A stretch of DNA of 64,000 nucleotides, from the NCBI GenBank assembly GCA_033763575.1, contig JANRKF010000013.1, positions 81,396-145,395 on the forward strand, read 5' to 3'. The translations under genes were made by a program, and so were the position numbers. The notes below the pieces were generated by a model. That model made no database searches and was not told where the DNA came from. It worked only from the letters and a program-made list of their open reading frames with translations. This stretch comes from Alphaproteobacteria bacterium (GTDB lineage Bacteria; Pseudomonadota; Alphaproteobacteria; Rickettsiales; SXRF01). How positions within the stretch are numbered: position 1 is the first letter of the stretch; the number at the start of each line of letters is the position of its first letter. Below, one piece after another: positions 3,470 through 51,546 of the stretch.

Positions 3470-3897
3470 AAATATCCGAGAACGGCCTCCTCCTCATCAA
3501 GCGGTTCGAGGGGTTCTCGGCCACTCCTTATCTATGCCCGGCGGGGAAGCTGACCATCGGCTACGGGCATGTCCTAGCCCCGCATTTATTGCGGGGTCCG
3601 GTGACAATAAAAGAAGCCGAAAAACTTCTGCTTGCGGATCTGGCCCCCGTCGAGGCCGCCATCAACCGGCTGGTCGTGGCTCCGCTCACCCAGAACCAGT
3701 TCGATGCGCTATGCTCGCTCACCTATAATATAGGGGTGGGGGCGTTTGCAAAATCGACGTTGTTGCGCTTACTGAACACCACCAACCACCAACCATCAAC
3801 CACCAACCAATTTTCCCGCTGGGTCTATGGGGGTGGAAAACGCCTCGCCGGGCTGGAAAAACGCCGCCGCGCCGAAATGGAATTGTTTCAGCAATAA
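3466..3897 (+). CDS. GH24 phage-type lysozyme (endolysin)
   Basis: MKISENGLLLIKRFEGFSATPYLCPAGKLTIGYGH... has the canonical E-(8)-D/C-(5)-T lysozyme N-terminus. ...FDALCSLTYNIG...RWVYGGGKRLAGLEKRRRAE matches the family C-terminus. Confidence 0.85.
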   Translation: MKISENGLLLIKRFEGFSATPYLCPAGKLTIGYGHVLAPHLLRGPVTIKEAEKLLLADLAPVEAAINRLVVAPLTQNQFDALCSLTYNIGVGAFAKSTLLRLLNTTNHQPSTTNQFSRWVYGGGKRLAGLEKRRRAEMELFQQ

Positions 3898-14736: not shown

Positions 14737-15492
14737 ATGACCGAAACCCTTGAATCACTTCTGAACATGCTGTGCAAAACGGTGGCCAGGAGCCAGCAGA
14801 ACGCCCAGCAAACCGTGTATACGCTCACCGACGGGAAAGACGCCAAGCTGGCCTACGATCTGCTGGTGGCGTGCAATGCCGACGTCAAATATTTCGCCGA
14901 TGCAAATGCCGGAAATAAGCTCTATGTGCAGAATGCCTCGCTTGCCGCCTGCGCCGATAAAATCGCCGCTATTCTTGGCTCCGCCACCCTGTTTAAGCAG
15001 ATCAAAAACCTGCTCGACAGCACTGAAAATGCCGGAAACTATAGCCTCTCCTTCATCAACACCGCGCATGGCCGCCAGCTGACGCTGCTGTTGCCGCCGG
15101 AGAAATCGACGGCAAGCAACGCTCCTGCAGCGAAATCCGCCGCGCCGGAAGCCACCCAATCCCCCGTCATGACCTCCCCTCGGCCAAAAACACCAGTACT
15201 GCCCAAAGATGAGGATGCCCTGCTCGCCGGCCCTACGGTCGCCCGCAAAGCCATCCCAAAAAGCTTTAAAGCCAGTGCCACCGAGGAAGACCCGCTGAGA
15301 ACGCGCATCATGCTCTACTTAAGCAGCCGCGTTTTCACCAGCACAGCCTGGACCATGTTCGCATTGCTGATCCTCGCCGTGATTTTCAGCATCATCATCA
15401 CCATACGCGGCTTCCTCTGCCCGGATATCGCAGGCGTGCAGAATGTTCCGGCTTATTGCCCCCGTAAAATCGCCCCACAACAACAGGAATAG
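14737..15492 (+). CDS. Hypothetical tail-anchored membrane protein (orphan)
   Basis: 251-aa ORF with a single C-terminal TM (WTMFALLILAVIFSIIITI). Its stop lies 1 nt before the aroA ATG. No family recognised. Confidence 0.5.
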   Translation: MTETLESLLNMLCKTVARSQQNAQQTVYTLTDGKDAKLAYDLLVACNADVKYFADANAGNKLYVQNASLAACADKIAAILGSATLFKQIKNLLDSTENAGNYSLSFINTAHGRQLTLLLPPEKSTASNAPAAKSAAPEATQSPVMTSPRPKTPVLPKDEDALLAGPTVARKAIPKSFKASATEEDPLRTRIMLYLSSRVFTSTAWTMFALLILAVIFSIIITIRGFLCPDIAGVQNVPAYCPRKIAPQQQE

Positions 15493-15493
15493 C

Positions 15494-17470
15494 ATGACCG
15501 CCACTTCTTCCGCCTCCCAGCCCCTTTGCGGCGACGTGCATGTCGCGGGCGACAAATCCATCTCGCACCGCGCGCTGATGCTGGCCTCGCAGGCGCTCGG
15601 GCTCACCACCATCTCCGGCCTGCTCGAAGGCGAAGACGTGATGAATACCGCCGCCGCGCTCAAAAGCATGGGAGTAAATATCGAGAAAAATGGTAGCCAG
15701 TGGCGCGTCGAAGGCGTGGGCATCGGCGGCCTGCAGGAACCGCAGGGCGTGCTGGATATGGGCAATTCCGGCACCAGCACCCGCCTGCTGATGGGCCTCG
15801 TCACCCCCTACCCGTTCACCAGCTTCTTCACCGGCGACGATTCGCTGCGTTCGCGGCCGATGGCCCGCGTCATCACCCCGCTGGAGCAGGTCGGCGCGCA
15901 AATCACCACCCATAGCGGCGGCAGGCTGCCGCTTTCGGTGAAGGGCACCGACACCCCCAACGCCATCAGCTACACGCTGCCGGTGGCCTCGGCACAGGTG
16001 AAATCGGCGATTATCCTCGCCGCGCTCAATACACCCGGCACCACCACCGTCATCGAACCGCATGCCACCCGTGACCACACCGAAAACATGTTGGAATATT
16101 TCGATATCCCCATCACGCGTGGGCAGACCAAAGACGGCACCAACATCACCCTGACCGGACGGCCAAAACAAACCGCAAAAAATCGCGACATCGAAGTGCC
16201 GGGCGATCCCTCCTCCGCTGCGTTCCTGCTGGTGGCGGCGCTGATCGTGCCCGGATCGAATGTCATCGTGCGCAATATCTGCATGAACCCGCTGCGCACC
16301 GGCCTGTTTACAACCTTAAAGGAAATGGGCGCGGATCTTTCCTACGAGAATGAACGCACGCTCGGCGGCGAAAAACTGGCGGATATCCGGGTGCGTTATA
16401 GCGCGCTGAAGGCGGTAAATGTGCCCGCCGAACGCGCGCCCTCCATGATCGATGAATACCCAATATTGGCGGTGGCGGCGGCCTTTGCCAAGGGCGAGAG
16501 CGTAATGCACGGGCTTTCCGAACTGCGGGTGAAGGAAAGCGACCGGCTGAATGCCATCACCGAAAGCCTCACCGGCTGCGGTGTTACCGCCCGCGCCGAG
16601 GGCGATACGCTTTATGTCACCGGCGGGGTGCCCAAGGGCGGCACCACCATCGCCACCCGCCTCGACCACCGCATCGCCATGTCATTCCTGGTGATGGGTA
16701 TGGCGAGCAAAGAACCCGTCATCATCGACGATGCCAGCGCCATCAACACCAGCTTCCCGAATTTCATATCGCTGATGAACGGGCTGGGCGCCTCGATTGC
16801 CACCGACCGAGTACCGAGTACCGAGTACCGGGTACCGCTAGTCATCACCATCGACGGCCCCGCCGCCTCCGGCAAAGGCACCCTCGCCCGCCGCCTCGCC
16901 GAGCATTTCGGCATGGCCTATCTCGATACCGGCAGCCTGTATCGCGCCGTCGGGCTGAAACTGGTCTATAGCGACAAGGACCCGAACGACAAGGAAGCCG
17001 CGCTCAAAGCCGCCCGCTCCATCGATACCAATGATTTAAGCAACCCCCGCCTGCGGCAGGAACGTATCGGGAAAGCGGCATCCATCGTTTCCGCCTTCCC
17101 GGAAGTGCGGCAGGCGCTGCTCGATTACCAGCGGGAATTTGCTAAGACCCCCAACGGCGCGGTGCTCGATGGCCGGGATATCGGCACGGTGGTCTGCCCC
17201 GACGCGCCGATCAAATTCTTCATCACCGCCACCTTGTTCGCCCGCGCCAAGCGCCGTCACCGGGAGCTTTCCGGCGAAGGAATAGAGGTGGTGTTCGATT
17301 CGGTGCTGGAAGACCTGCGCGAGCGTGACGAACGCGACCAGAACCGCGCAGCCGCGCCGTTAGTACCCGCCGACGATGCGATTATCATCGATTCCTCCGC
17401 CGCCGACGCCAGCGAGATTTTCCAGCGGGCGCGGGAAATCGTGGAACTCCGGAAAGTCAGCGCTTCTTAG
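15494..17470 (+). CDS. aroA: Fused 3-phosphoshikimate 1-carboxyvinyltransferase / cytidylate kinase
   Basis: N-terminal ~437 aa is EPSP synthase (GDKSISHRALMLA, LDMGNSGTSTRLL, KESDRL, DHRIAMSF). After the linker RVPSTEYRVP comes a full Cmk (ITIDGPAASGKGTLARRLA...DGRDIGTVV...RDERD). One uninterrupted frame. Confidence 0.85.
   Translation: MTATSSASQPLCGDVHVAGDKSISHRALMLASQALGLTTISGLLEGEDVMNTAAALKSMGVNIEKNGSQWRVEGVGIGGLQEPQGVLDMGNSGTSTRLLMGLVTPYPFTSFFTGDDSLRSRPMARVITPLEQVGAQITTHSGGRLPLSVKGTDTPNAISYTLPVASAQVKSAIILAALNTPGTTTVIEPHATRDHTENMLEYFDIPITRGQTKDGTNITLTGRPKQTAKNRDIEVPGDPSSAAFLLVAALIVPGSNVIVRNICMNPLRTGLFTTLKEMGADLSYENERTLGGEKLADIRVRYSALKAVNVPAERAPSMIDEYPILAVAAAFAKGESVMHGLSELRVKESDRLNAITESLTGCGVTARAEGDTLYVTGGVPKGGTTIATRLDHRIAMSFLVMGMASKEPVIIDDASAINTSFPNFISLMNGLGASIATDRVPSTEYRVPLVITIDGPAASGKGTLARRLAEHFGMAYLDTGSLYRAVGLKLVYSDKDPNDKEAALKAARSIDTNDLSNPRLRQERIGKAASIVSAFPEVRQALLDYQREFAKTPNGAVLDGRDIGTVVCPDAPIKFFITATLFARAKRRHRELSGEGIEVVFDSVLEDLRERDERDQNRAAAPLVPADDAIIIDSSAADASEIFQRAREIVELRKVSAS
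16807..16837 (+). repeat. Heptanucleotide tandem repeat (ccgagta x3, ccgggta, ccg) at the aroA-cmk junction
   Basis: ccgagtaccgagtaccgagtaccgggtaccg read directly. It encodes the linker PSTEYRVP. Confidence 0.85.
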
Positions 17471-18002
17471 TCGGTTTTTTGGCCGGGGCTTTTTTCGCAG
17501 GCGCTTTCTTGGCGGTTTTGGCAGAGGATTTCTTCGCGGGACGCTCGTCTTCATCCTCGTCCTCATCCTCTTCTTCTTCGTCTTCGTCGATGCTATCGAT
17601 CAGGACTTCGCCTTCTATTTCTTCTTCCTCATCATCATCGCCGCCCTCATCAAGCTCTTCGAGGCTTTCGAGCGTCTCCATTTCGTCTTCCTCGATCTCC
17701 TCGATATCGTCATCGCCGGCGATCGGCTCGATATCCTCGAACGCATCCAGATCGACGCCCTCAATCTCCTTGACCGGCTTTTTTGCCTTGGCCTGGCGCA
17801 GCTCCATCTTGGCTTTTTCCTTGAGCAGGGGATCGTCGGCATCCCCGGTGACCACCGCTTTTGCCCGCCCGCGCTTGCGATGGGCAATGGTGCTGTCGTT
17901 GATGGTGGCGCATTTCGGGCACTTGGCGGGATTCTTGCCTAAATCGTAAAACTTGGCTCCACACCCCACGCAAACCCGTTTATTTCCTAAATCAATGCTC
18001 AC
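17457..18002 (-). CDS. TIGR02300/FYDLN_acid family zinc-ribbon protein with poly-acidic and Lys/Ala-rich tail
   Basis: (GTG) SIDLGNKRVCVGCGAKFYDLGKNPAKCPKCAT, then a D/E-rich region and a KKAPAKKAPAKK tail. A GGGAG RBS lies 6 nt before GTG 18002. The 3' end overlaps cmk by 14 nt (convergent). Confidence 0.75.
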   Translation of the reverse strand: MSIDLGNKRVCVGCGAKFYDLGKNPAKCPKCATINDSTIAHRKRGRAKAVVTGDADDPLLKEKAKMELRQAKAKKPVKEIEGVDLDAFEDIEPIAGDDDIEEIEEDEMETLESLEELDEGGDDDEEEEIEGEVLIDSIDEDEEEEDEDEDEDERPAKKSSAKTAKKAPAKKAPAKKPTKKR

Positions 18003-18072
18003 ATGATACTCCCTATGAATTCGCGCCAATGAGGTTTGCTTAAACAGAAATGTTTTTTTTGCAACATAAATA

Positions 18073-18099
18073 TTGAAATTTTTGAATAACGTACCACAT
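18073..18099 (+). promoter_or_regulatory. Putative sigma-32 (RpoH) heat-shock promoter of grpE
   Basis: TTGAAA-N15-CCACAT resembles the CTTGAAA-N13-15-CCCCAT consensus and ends about 38 nt upstream of the grpE ATG. Confidence 0.45.
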
Positions 18100-18137
18100 T
18101 CCCTTAGCTAAATAATTTTCAACCGAAGAAAAGAGCC

Positions 18138-18725
18138 ATGACCAGGAATAATGAAAAACCGATAGCCGAAGACCCGCAGGAACCTGCAACCGAAACGCAG
18201 GATATTGCTGCCGAAGCCGCAACAGCCGCGCAGATCGCCGATCTGGAAGAAAAACTGGCCCAGATGAAAGACCAGTGGGTGCGCGCTGCCGCCGAAACCG
18301 AAAACATCCGCAAGCGTGCCGAGCGCGACCAGCAGGAAACTGCCCGCTACGCCGCTGCCAGCTTCGCCCGCGACATGGTGGGCGTGCTGGAAAATGTAAA
18401 ACGCGCCGCCGAAAGCATCACCCCTGAAAAACGCGCAGGCGACGAATTGCTGAAAACCGTTGGCGACGGGCTGGACATGACGGTCGCCGAACTGACCGGC
18501 ATTTTCGAGCGCCACGGCATCAAACGCATCAACCCGATGGGCGAAAAATTCGACCATAACCTGCATCAGGCGGTGGTGCAGGTGGAGCAGCCCGGCACCG
18601 AACCGAACACGGTGATCCAGGTGGTGCAGGCCGGATACATCATGCATGACCGCCTGCTGAAACCGGCCATGGTCGCCGTCACCAAGGCCGCCAGCGATGA
18701 AAAAAAGCTGGATACCAGCGCGTAG
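18138..18725 (+). CDS. grpE: Nucleotide exchange factor GrpE
   Basis: ...QMKDQWVRAAAETENIRKRAERD...FARDMVGVLENVKRA...HQAVVQVE...GYIMHDRLLKPAMVAV is canonical GrpE. Confidence 0.9.
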   Translation: MTRNNEKPIAEDPQEPATETQDIAAEAATAAQIADLEEKLAQMKDQWVRAAAETENIRKRAERDQQETARYAAASFARDMVGVLENVKRAAESITPEKRAGDELLKTVGDGLDMTVAELTGIFERHGIKRINPMGEKFDHNLHQAVVQVEQPGTEPNTVIQVVQAGYIMHDRLLKPAMVAVTKAASDEKKLDTSA

Positions 18726-36669: not shown

Positions 36670-37812
36670 CTATAAAAGCTCCTCATACACCGCCAGCGTT
36701 TTCTCACACATGGTATCGAGTGAAAAACGCTCCGCCTGCTTGCGCGCATCGCGGGCGATGTGCTGCTGCATCGTTTCATCCAGCCCCATCACGTTCTCGA
36801 TCGCGGCGGCGAGCGCCCCCACATCACCCGGCGGCACCAGAAGACCTGTTTCCCCGTGAATCACCGTTTCCTGAGGCCCGCCGTGGCTGGTGGCGATCAC
36901 CGGCTTGCCCATCGCCTGCGCTTCCAGCACCACGCGGCCAAACGCCTCCGGCTCAATCGATGTGGCAACCACCACCCGCGCCAGCATATAGGCCTCGGTG
37001 ATATGCTGCGTATGCTCGGCAAAGCGCACATGCTCCTCCAGCCCCAGCTCGGTGATGAGCGACTCCAGCTCGCCGCGATAGCTCCCGCCTTTTTTATCGT
37101 CGCCTAAAATCACCGCGAAGAAATGACGGTGCGGCAGCGCGGCGAGTGCGCGCAGGAACACGTCCTGCCCTTTCCAGCGGGTGATGCGGCCGGGAAATAA
37201 AATCACCGGCAGCTCCATCGGCAGCCGCCATTCCTTGATCAGCGCGTCCATCCGCTGGTGCGAAAATAAATCGGGGGTGAATAAATTCAGATCCACCCCG
37301 CGATGGATGATGCGGATATTGGCCGGATCGACCGCATAATTCGCCTTGATATGCTCGGCGATGAAATTGGAAATGGCGATCACCCGCTCGCCCTTCACCA
37401 TCACGCTGTTATAGCGGTGCTTGAAACGGTTCTGGATGCCGTAGGTGCCATGGAAGGTGGTGACGAAACGGCAGCCGGTCTTATAAGCCGCAAGCCACGC
37501 GCACCATGCCGGCGCACGGCTTCTGGCATGCACGATATCCACCCCATGCTCGCGGATGATGCCCACCAGCGCACGCGCATTGCGCCACACGGTGAAGGGG
37601 TTTTTGCTATCGAGCGGCAGGGTGATATGCTCGGCGCCAAGGCGAAACAGCTGATACATCATCTTGCCGCCGCTGGAGGCGACCAGCGCCCGTCCGCCCG
37701 CCTGCTGGATGGCACGGGCGATTTCCACCGTACCGCGCTCTACCCCGCCGCTGGAAAGAGCGGGCAGCACTTGCAGAATGACAGGGGGCTTTTTATCGTG
37801 CATGGGGTACAT
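36670..37812 (-). CDS. Glycosyltransferase family 4
   Basis: ILQVLPALSSGGVERGTVEIA... and a C-terminal EX7E region EPEAFGRVVLEAQAMGKPVIATSHGGPQETV. The start is set at the ATG with a GGAGG RBS. Confidence 0.8.
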   Translation of the reverse strand: MYPMHDKKPPVILQVLPALSSGGVERGTVEIARAIQQAGGRALVASSGGKMMYQLFRLGAEHITLPLDSKNPFTVWRNARALVGIIREHGVDIVHARSRAPAWCAWLAAYKTGCRFVTTFHGTYGIQNRFKHRYNSVMVKGERVIAISNFIAEHIKANYAVDPANIRIIHRGVDLNLFTPDLFSHQRMDALIKEWRLPMELPVILFPGRITRWKGQDVFLRALAALPHRHFFAVILGDDKKGGSYRGELESLITELGLEEHVRFAEHTQHITEAYMLARVVVATSIEPEAFGRVVLEAQAMGKPVIATSHGGPQETVIHGETGLLVPPGDVGALAAAIENVMGLDETMQQHIARDARKQAERFSLDTMCEKTLAVYEELL

Positions 37813-37854
37813 ATACACCTCCCCCCATCAAGTGCAAGAGGGGCATGGATAGGC

Positions 37855-51205: not shown

Positions 51206-51279
51206 TTGATAGTTGTTGGTTGTTGGAAAAATAAAACCCTGCTACACCACCAACTATCAACCACCAACCATCAACCGCC
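51205..51279. repeat. Family-3 heptamer-built palindromic element
   Basis: Left arm gttgata-gttgttg-gttgttg, loop aaaaataaaaccctgctaca, right arm caccaac-tatcaac-caccaac-catcaac. Confidence 0.7.
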
Positions 51280-51546
51280 ATGGAACCCACCGAAATCATC
51301 GATATTGGCCGTGACGCCATTTATGTGCTGATCGTGATCGCCTCACCGGTGATGCTGACATCGCTGATCGTGGGCCTGATCGTTTCGCTCTTTCAGGCCC
51401 TCACCCAGATTCAGGAACAAACGCTCACCTTCGTTCCAAAAATCCTCACCATGCTGGTCGTGCTCGGCTTCACCATGCCCTTCATGCTGCAGCACCTCAC
51501 CGATTTCACCCACCGCCTCACCGAAAAAATCGTGCATATTGAATAA
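51280..51546 (+). CDS. fliQ: Flagellar type III export protein FliQ
   Basis: ...IGRDAIYVLIVIASPVMLTSLIVGLIVSLFQALTQIQEQTLTFVPKIL is canonical FliQ. Confidence 0.9.
   Translation: MEPTEIIDIGRDAIYVLIVIASPVMLTSLIVGLIVSLFQALTQIQEQTLTFVPKILTMLVVLGFTMPFMLQHLTDFTHRLTEKIVHIE

Follow-up and report, generated by a model that had tools for sequence, protein, structure and literature searches.

The window analysed here is a stretch of 64,000 nucleotides from an uncultured alphaproteobacterium (GenBank assembly GCA_033763575.1, contig JANRKF010000013.1, positions 81,396 to 145,395), and the gene under study in it, aroA-cmk, joins EPSP synthase (AroA) and cytidylate kinase (Cmk) through a linker that contains a tandem array of the heptamer ACCGAGT. 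The collected evidence makes it very probable that an old fused gene has recently received a dispersed repeat, which was tolerated in a disordered linker, and that the array was neither the origin of the fusion nor a switch. A first-pass annotation, made from the sequence letters, had proposed instead that the fusion state depends on the repeat copy number, and had suggested that the tract may be either the remnant of a heptamer element whose insertion erased the aroA stop codon or a slippage-prone switch. The linker repeat is better read as a tolerated passenger than as a genetic switch or a fusion origin. A fused gene of this kind is nothing unusual in its clade, and the part of interest is the heptamer system that extends over the whole genome.

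The fused gene and the array in its linker

The open reading frame (ORF) listing, Pfam and NCBIfam confirmed that EPSP synthase and Cmk form one frame of 658 aa, as had been annotated, and both domains were found in this frame without an intervening stop codon. The fused gene occupies 15494..17470 on the plus strand (658 aa and a stop codon). It belongs to a single ORF at 15443..17470 (+), which is 675 aa long when read from its first ATG and 658 aa when read from the one at 15494; the 658-aa version is the aroA-cmk protein on record in NCBI nr. The AroA domain (15515..16771, +) was matched by PF00275 EPSP_synthase over residues 25-443 of the 675-aa frame (profile 4-415 of 417, E 7e-108) and by TIGR01356 aroA with 411 bits against a cutoff of 287. 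The corresponding values for the Cmk domain (16844..17440, +) were residues 468-666 with PF02224 Cytidylate_kin (profile 1-208 of 211, E 2.5e-56) and 173 bits against a cutoff of 136 with TIGR00017 cmk. The interdomain linker (16772..16843, +) was delimited with alignments of 28 genomes and 120 proteins and with the predicted local distance difference test (pLDDT) scores of AlphaFold, and the Cmk P-loop, GPAASGKG, starts 6 residues past it. No ATG, GTG or TTG codon was detected in the cmk frame from 16775 to the P-loop. According to a six-frame search of the source genome, which is 92% complete, the fused gene is its sole aroA and its sole cmk.

The array was located by TRF at 16806..16837 (+) with a period of 7, 4.6 copies and 96% matches. 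It consists of three perfect ACCGAGT units, one variant unit with a single substitution (ACCGGGT) and a closing ACCG, and stands solitary in the linker. Its translation, (D)RVPSTEYRVP, was confirmed by TRF and by the sequence, so that the RVPSTEYRVP linker is indeed encoded by a 7-bp tandem repeat. The 14-mer made of two units occurred 3 times in the window, compared with 0.11 occurrences expected from shuffles.

The effect of unit changes was determined in silico. With one unit removed, the protein was cut to 463 aa by a TAG that is latent in the +1 frame (16839..16841, +) and lies directly after the array, and the addition of two units likewise ended the protein there. The addition of one unit resulted in a 511-aa product with an out-of-frame tail; with one unit more or two units fewer this tail was about 36 residues long. 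The frame was kept when three units were added or removed. The expected frame shift and truncation of cmk by a one-unit change were therefore reproduced, while the supposed uncoupling of the two enzymes was not: because a gained or lost unit truncates the frame and there is neither an own start codon for cmk nor a second cmk, such a change would remove Cmk altogether.

These properties raise the question of a contingency (phase-variation) locus, in which slipped-strand mispairing would toggle Cmk or the fused state. In favour of such a locus, 7 is not divisible by 3, so that the gain or loss of one or two units cuts the protein short ahead of Cmk, and heptameric simple sequence repeats (SSRs) drive phase variation in Haemophilus HMW1A (PMC8262952). 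However, only three perfect units and one variant are present, and an OFF state would deprive the cell of a nucleotide-metabolism enzyme, since the genome has no other cmk or aroA. Taken together with the fixed size of the array at other loci (below), phase variation was judged very unlikely.

The fusion is older than the array

Forty relatives were covered by the six-frame search, and the loci were re-translated directly. In all 24 full-length genomes that this search recovered from the family of the source genome (f1), a single stop-free match extended over both domains. Four other families of the order were each represented by one genome with a stop-free fusion (G031, G032, G034 and G036), and in the remaining families aroA and cmk were separate, being either adjacent, overlapping or unlinked. 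A scan of contigs with tblastn, followed by inspection, resulted in 16 truly stop-free fused loci, all of them in uncultured metagenome-assembled genomes (MAGs) labelled 'Rickettsiales/Alphaproteobacteria'. In a collection of 5.8 billion proteins, all of the best 120 matches contained both Pfam domains, although databases name these 120 only '3-phosphoshikimate 1-carboxyvinyltransferase'. The closest database proteins were 82-85% identical to the window protein and were fused without the array.

Apparent fusions in Magnetospirillum, Kiloniella, Tateyamaria and Azospirillum were rejected, as their tblastn matches cross 1-3 in-frame stop codons. Many named alphaproteobacteria have aroA and cmk as neighbours in one reading frame, with only 1-3 stop codons and a short spacer between them; these are not fusions, and it is this arrangement that makes such neighbours look fused in tblastn results and in summaries of matched residues.

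The linkers of the relatives were hypervariable, with 12-38 aa and no common sequence among 28 genomes and 120 proteins. The window linker of 19 aa is comparable with the median of about 19-20 in relatives (20 among the best 120 matches). Neither the PSTEYRV peptide nor the ACCGAGT repeat was present in any orthologous linker of these 28 genomes and best 120 proteins. Within the same genus, the linker of one genome (G002) is AHGGVQPHIP and that of another (G001) is a long Asn/Gly-rich insert, both without ACCGAGT. In a genome of another genus (G003), a full heptamer hairpin is translated in frame in the aroA-cmk linker (L007:2786-2868); it is composed of four AGTGGCG units, a 15-nt loop and four ACTCGCC units, and its 34-nt arms are 88% complementary.

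The fusion is thus older than the array, because stop-free relatives and the closest homologues lack the repeat. It is an inherited trait of a family of uncultured alphaproteobacteria, labelled 'Rickettsiales' by NCBI, and is shared by several sister families. The dependence of the fusion state on the repeat copy number is contradicted by the fused genes without the repeat in 24 family genomes, four sister families and the best 120 homologues. Comparison of the aroA-cmk junction in relatives, which had been suggested at the outset, revealed a fusion that is widespread and independent of the repeat, but not the identical linker that had been envisaged, as the linkers are variable.

Two alternatives are affected directly by these data. 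The first is that insertion of the heptamer element removed the aroA stop codon and thereby made the fusion; the array does lie exactly between the domains, and a stop codon is kept there in many other alphaproteobacteria (Magnetospirillum, Kiloniella, Tateyamaria). Nevertheless, family relatives and the metagenomic homologues of 82-85% identity are already fused without an ACCGAGT array, and the array copies of the genome differ by 0-2 substitutions where the host genes differ by 15-30%, which makes the array far younger. This origin is extremely improbable. Of the earlier proposal, the remnant of a heptamer element has held, in the form of a dispersed family of about 32-bp ACCGAGT arrays, whereas the erasure of the aroA stop by its insertion has not.

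The second is an assembly artefact, with a different true copy number and genes that are really separate. The source is a MAG of 35 contigs and 92% completeness, and repeats can be mis-assembled. On the other hand, a read is longer than the 32-bp array, the copy number as assembled yields the very frame that is intact in every relative, a miscount by one or two units would disrupt a fusion that is conserved, and a separate cmk would have no start codon. An artefact of this kind is hardly credible.

The same order of domains, with N-terminal EPSP synthase and C-terminal Cmk, is known from the bifunctional AroA/Cmk family NF008816 of NCBIfam (PRK11860), whose model aligned over residues 29-661. 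The window protein scored 331.2 bits with this model, far below the cutoff of 943, and falls outside that equivalog. The fusion in the window is probably independent of the NF008816 fusion and belongs to a different clade. A literature search on aroA-cmk fusions resulted in nothing relevant.

ACCGAGT arrays are dispersed in the source genome

The source genome (G000; 1.94 Mb, 55.6% G+C) contained 141 merged period-7 arrays, nearly all of 4.3-5 units (30-35 bp) and with lengths that peak at 30-33 bp. Exact arrays of at least 3 copies numbered 23 for period 7, compared with 3-4 for periods 5, 6 and 8. The arrays were located mostly inside genes: 105 of the 141 were within stop-to-stop frames of at least 200 aa, and 51 had at least 100 open codons on either side in the same frame. 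Only 6 arrays were frameshift-like candidates, at least one of which is merely a gene junction. Tight inverted pairs with loops of 8-68 nt accounted for 38 of the 141 arrays; the aroA-cmk copy itself is solitary. Two more period-7 arrays are found in the window, at 3778-3809 and 51246-51280, with the unit ACCACCA and 4.6 and 5 units, respectively.

Ten near-identical arrays of the genome share the ACCGAGT unit. They are 30-35 bp long (4.3-5 units), agree in phase and in their ends, (T)ACCGAGT...GAGTACC(G), and all ten lie in open frames, on the sense strand and in frame, each encoding a phase of the cyclic peptide P-S-T-E-Y-R-V. Because 7 = 1 mod 3, the same cyclic heptapeptide is encoded in all three frames, which makes the heptamer array a naturally frame-proof insert. 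Apart from aroA-cmk, the host genes above the NCBIfam cutoffs were those of LipB, ThiD, CarA, XerD and SucB; the others encode a NifS/IscS-like cysteine desulfurase, a FabK-like reductase, a YejF-like ABC ATPase and a GltD-like fusion protein. Differences of 0-2 substitutions among the ten copies, compared with 15-30% in the host genes, date the array to long after the fusion.

The aroA-cmk array therefore belongs to a dispersed repeat and did not arise by slippage at its site. A de novo origin, in which replication slippage multiplied a 7-mer within the linker independently of the other arrays, could draw on the CCACCG just upstream (16800-16805), which holds ACCG as a possible slippage seed. 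However, the same unit, phase and length of 4.3-5 units recur at ten unrelated loci and in four genera, and in-frame growth would have to pass through frameshifted intermediates of the only cmk. We consider it highly improbable.

The data from the genome also bear on phase variation. The ten ACCGAGT copies have the same fixed length and boundaries and lie in frame in single-copy housekeeping genes, not in dispensable surface, restriction-modification or virulence-type genes. The copy in carA is equal in length in two species, and 51 arrays are deep in frame, compared with only 6 frameshift-like candidates. A slippage-prone switch, as suggested in the first-pass annotation, and a programmed switch at the linker array in general, are unlikely, and we infer that the array copy number is stable in the linker.

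Array sites in orthologous proteins

The nine other host segments were compared, as a concatenated probe, with the genomes G001, G002 and G021, and the orthologues were aligned. At 8 of the 9 sites the orthologues had no ACCGAGT array and contained variable loops instead; the position of the array always corresponded to a variable loop or linker. A length gain at the array was observed in the FabK-like protein (a clean +11 aa), in LipB (about +15 aa) and in ThiD (+4 aa). In the case of the YejF-like ABC ATPase, the orthologue in G001 (G001:C27) carries another translated heptamer array, RTTNHDL-RTTNYEL-RTTNYDL, exactly at the site of the array in the source genome. This loop has been colonised independently by different units.

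The array in carA was the only one shared with G002, and it has the same length in both species. It is part of a patch of 0.9-1.2 kb (contig C24 of the source genome, ~36,900-37,820, outside the window; compared with G002:C18), in which the DNA of the two genomes is 96-100% identical, with flanks of 82-88% identity. This points to a recent inter-species recombination that took the array along.

The alignments show that the array is dispersed and placed in frame in loops. The arrays in the loops of the host proteins and the hairpin in the aroA-cmk linker of G003 indicate that variable linkers are recurrent landing sites.

Tolerance of the array-coded peptide

An AlphaFold2 model of the 658-aa protein, built on 17 fused sequences, consisted of two folded domains with a mean pLDDT of 87.8. 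The sole internal stretch with a pLDDT below 50 was formed by residues 439-446, which are inside the array-coded peptide (residues ~438-448). The array segment of the linker is accordingly predicted to be disordered.

The translated reading of the arrays was found to be biased. Of 42 arrays that are stop-free on both strands, 32 had the more hydrophilic peptide on the read strand (p about 0.001), and the mean grand average of hydropathy (GRAVY) was -1.04 for the read strand and +0.16 for the other. This bias fits a selection that keeps only loop-compatible readings. In the aroA-cmk linker the array appears to be neutral.

A function of the array at its site, either as a protein-binding DNA or RNA motif or as a translational pause that aids co-translational folding, was also considered. 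The strong sense-strand bias in this genome (10 of 10) and the fixed length of about 4.5 units genome-wide, as in Xanthomonas and Nostoc (Rehm et al., PMC4692102), would agree with it, and the local RNA fold of the array region was modestly better than that of shuffles (z = -2.3). Against it, no Rfam match was detected in 15000-18500, the array is absent from every orthologous linker, the loops in which it lies are unrelated in host and position, the hydrophilicity of the encoded peptide accounts for the sense bias, and the element occurs antisense and intergenically in other genomes. An own function of the array is quite unlikely.

Distribution in relatives and PF05635 cassettes

Three units of ACCGAGT, with one mismatch allowed, were found in 9 of 44 family genomes, belonging to 4 of 19 genera; the reversed control resulted in 0 matches. 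In G059, ACCGAGT hairpins with loops of 11 nt or 83 nt are situated in intergenic DNA and contain no gene. In G046 and G043, which represent two genera, a PF05635 gene immediately upstream of accC is enclosed by ACCGAGT arrays in inverted orientation (G046:C80:1493-1988 and G043:C9:16627-17055). At the same site of G059 (C4), which is of a third genus, both arms are present with only 83 nt between them, and in the source genome the site (C6:260-662) is empty. The states of the accC site in these genera suggest a cassette and, at the same orthologous position, a derivative of it without the gene.

Inverted heptamer arrays, of units other than ACCGAGT, also flank both PF05635 genes of the source genome (C2:32064-32486 and C21:39385-39849, outside the window); the arms are TGGTCAT/CAAAGAC and GTTGGTT/CCAACAA, respectively. 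The C-terminal codons of one of these genes are formed by its 3' heptamer array. The family PF05635 comprises the 23S rRNA intervening-sequence protein, a bAvd-like four-helix bundle, and the likeness to the present case consists in the use of ACCGAGT as inverted terminal arms in G046 and G043. The aroA-cmk copy differs from these cassettes in having neither a gene nor a second arm. To our knowledge, no mobilising activity has been ascribed to PF05635 proteins, and nothing was found in the literature that links PF05635 genes to heptamer repeats.

The density of heptamer arrays, determined for the relatives from 100-kb samples, was 7.4 per 100 kb in the source genome, 12 in G003 and 0 in G002, which is of the same genus, G007 and G036. 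Such a patchy distribution among close relatives resembles an infection. A Y1 (HUH) transposase of the RAYT/IS200 type was rejected as the mobiliser, as PF01797 had no match in the source genome at its completeness of 92%; controls matched in 6 of 14 genomes.

Proposed course of events and comparison with known repeats

The preferred explanation, an old fusion with a recent and tolerated repeat, can be formulated in steps. The stop codon between adjacent aroA and cmk was most likely lost, which would have left a short, unconstrained and disordered linker. After the split from the nearest sampled relatives, an element of about 32 bp, with 4.6 ACCGAGT units, would have entered this linker. Its peptide, P-S-T-E-Y-R-V, is stop-free and hydrophilic, and an insertion or replacement that kept the length a multiple of three would be read through as a harmless loop. 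A frame-keeping insert could be tolerated in this manner because all three frames give a stop-free hydrophilic heptapeptide. The array in aroA-cmk would then serve as a passive disordered spacer.

Several observations weigh against this explanation. In CarA, XerD, the ABC ATPase and the GltD-like protein the array is length-neutral and pre-existing residues are replaced, and simple insertion is no explanation for such arrays. In other genomes some ACCGAGT arrays are antisense, intergenic or near gene starts, and it is therefore only in this lineage that all ten copies have the sense orientation. As a predictor of heptamer density the PF05635 gene number was tried, but the two did not correlate in the five genomes sampled; G002 has 2 PF05635 genes and 0 arrays in the 100 kb sampled. 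With regard to the stability of the copy number, a flank-anchored pattern with a gap of 18-48 nt had no match in metagenome contigs, and the window protein is alone in its 90% cluster.

It is conceivable, albeit doubtful, that the heptamer arrays were left behind by a copy-in process, as yet undescribed, that works without any recognisable transposase; its sources would be PF05635 cassettes, with the gene between inverted arrays of about 4.5 heptamers. In such a process single arms of about 32 bp would be written into or over about 30 bp of variable surface loops of housekeeping genes, often in a length-neutral manner, and the 7-bp period would make the element frame-proof, with one stop-free peptide in every frame. 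If this were the case, the arrays would represent a new kind of coding-sequence-colonising repeat and would offer an explanation without G-quadruplexes for the 'four-unit' rule in Xanthomonas and Nostoc.

The closest parallels of the arrays are the heptamers of Xanthomonas and Nostoc at the DNA level and the Rickettsia palindromic elements (RPE) in behaviour; the source genome combines both, with repeats that are heptamer-built and mostly intragenic. Dispersed heptameric SSRs have been described in Xanthomonas (GGGAATC) and Nostoc, together with the short tandemly repeated repetitive (STRR) heptamers of cyanobacteria (Rehm et al. 2015, PMC4692102). They are similar to the present arrays in the 7-bp units, the many dispersed loci and the preference for about four units. 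Convergent inverted pairs, which can form stem-loops, are frequent in Xanthomonas and Nostoc (PMC4692102) and were detected also in the source genome (38 of 141 arrays), G059, G046 and G043. In contrast to the Xanthomonas/Nostoc type, which is G-rich, able to form G-quadruplexes and under-represented in coding regions, ACCGAGT has no G-tracts and 105 of the 141 arrays are in frames. As there is no G-tract in ACCGAGT, the four-unit preference in this genome is not explicable by G-quadruplex formation.

The RPE, on the other hand, are small repeats that, like the present arrays, are found in frame in unrelated metabolic and housekeeping genes (PMC10969869). They are non-autonomous, belong to a small-genome alphaproteobacterium and, once translated, add peptide segments that the protein fold can accommodate (PMC10969869). 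RPE are palindromes of about 100-150 bp in conserved families, whereas the tandem array in aroA-cmk measures 32 bp and stands alone, without a partner arm in its vicinity.

An uncultured alphaproteobacterial genome of roughly 2 Mb thus carries about 140 heptamer arrays of fixed length, most of them translated inside genes, many of which are essential. If the copying mechanism were found, it would extend the idea of repeat-driven evolution of protein loops, known from the Rickettsia RPE, and would bear on the question of why dispersed bacterial heptamers prefer about four units.

Neighbouring features

A convergent ORF of 190 aa (17457-18029 of the window, minus strand) overlaps the last 14 nt of aroA-cmk. 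Its product has an N-terminal CxxC...CxxC motif resembling a zinc ribbon and a very acidic, repeat-rich tail, and no NCBIfam family matched it at E 1e-10 or better. The segment 17475-17740 is dense with tandem repeats of 6-24 bp.

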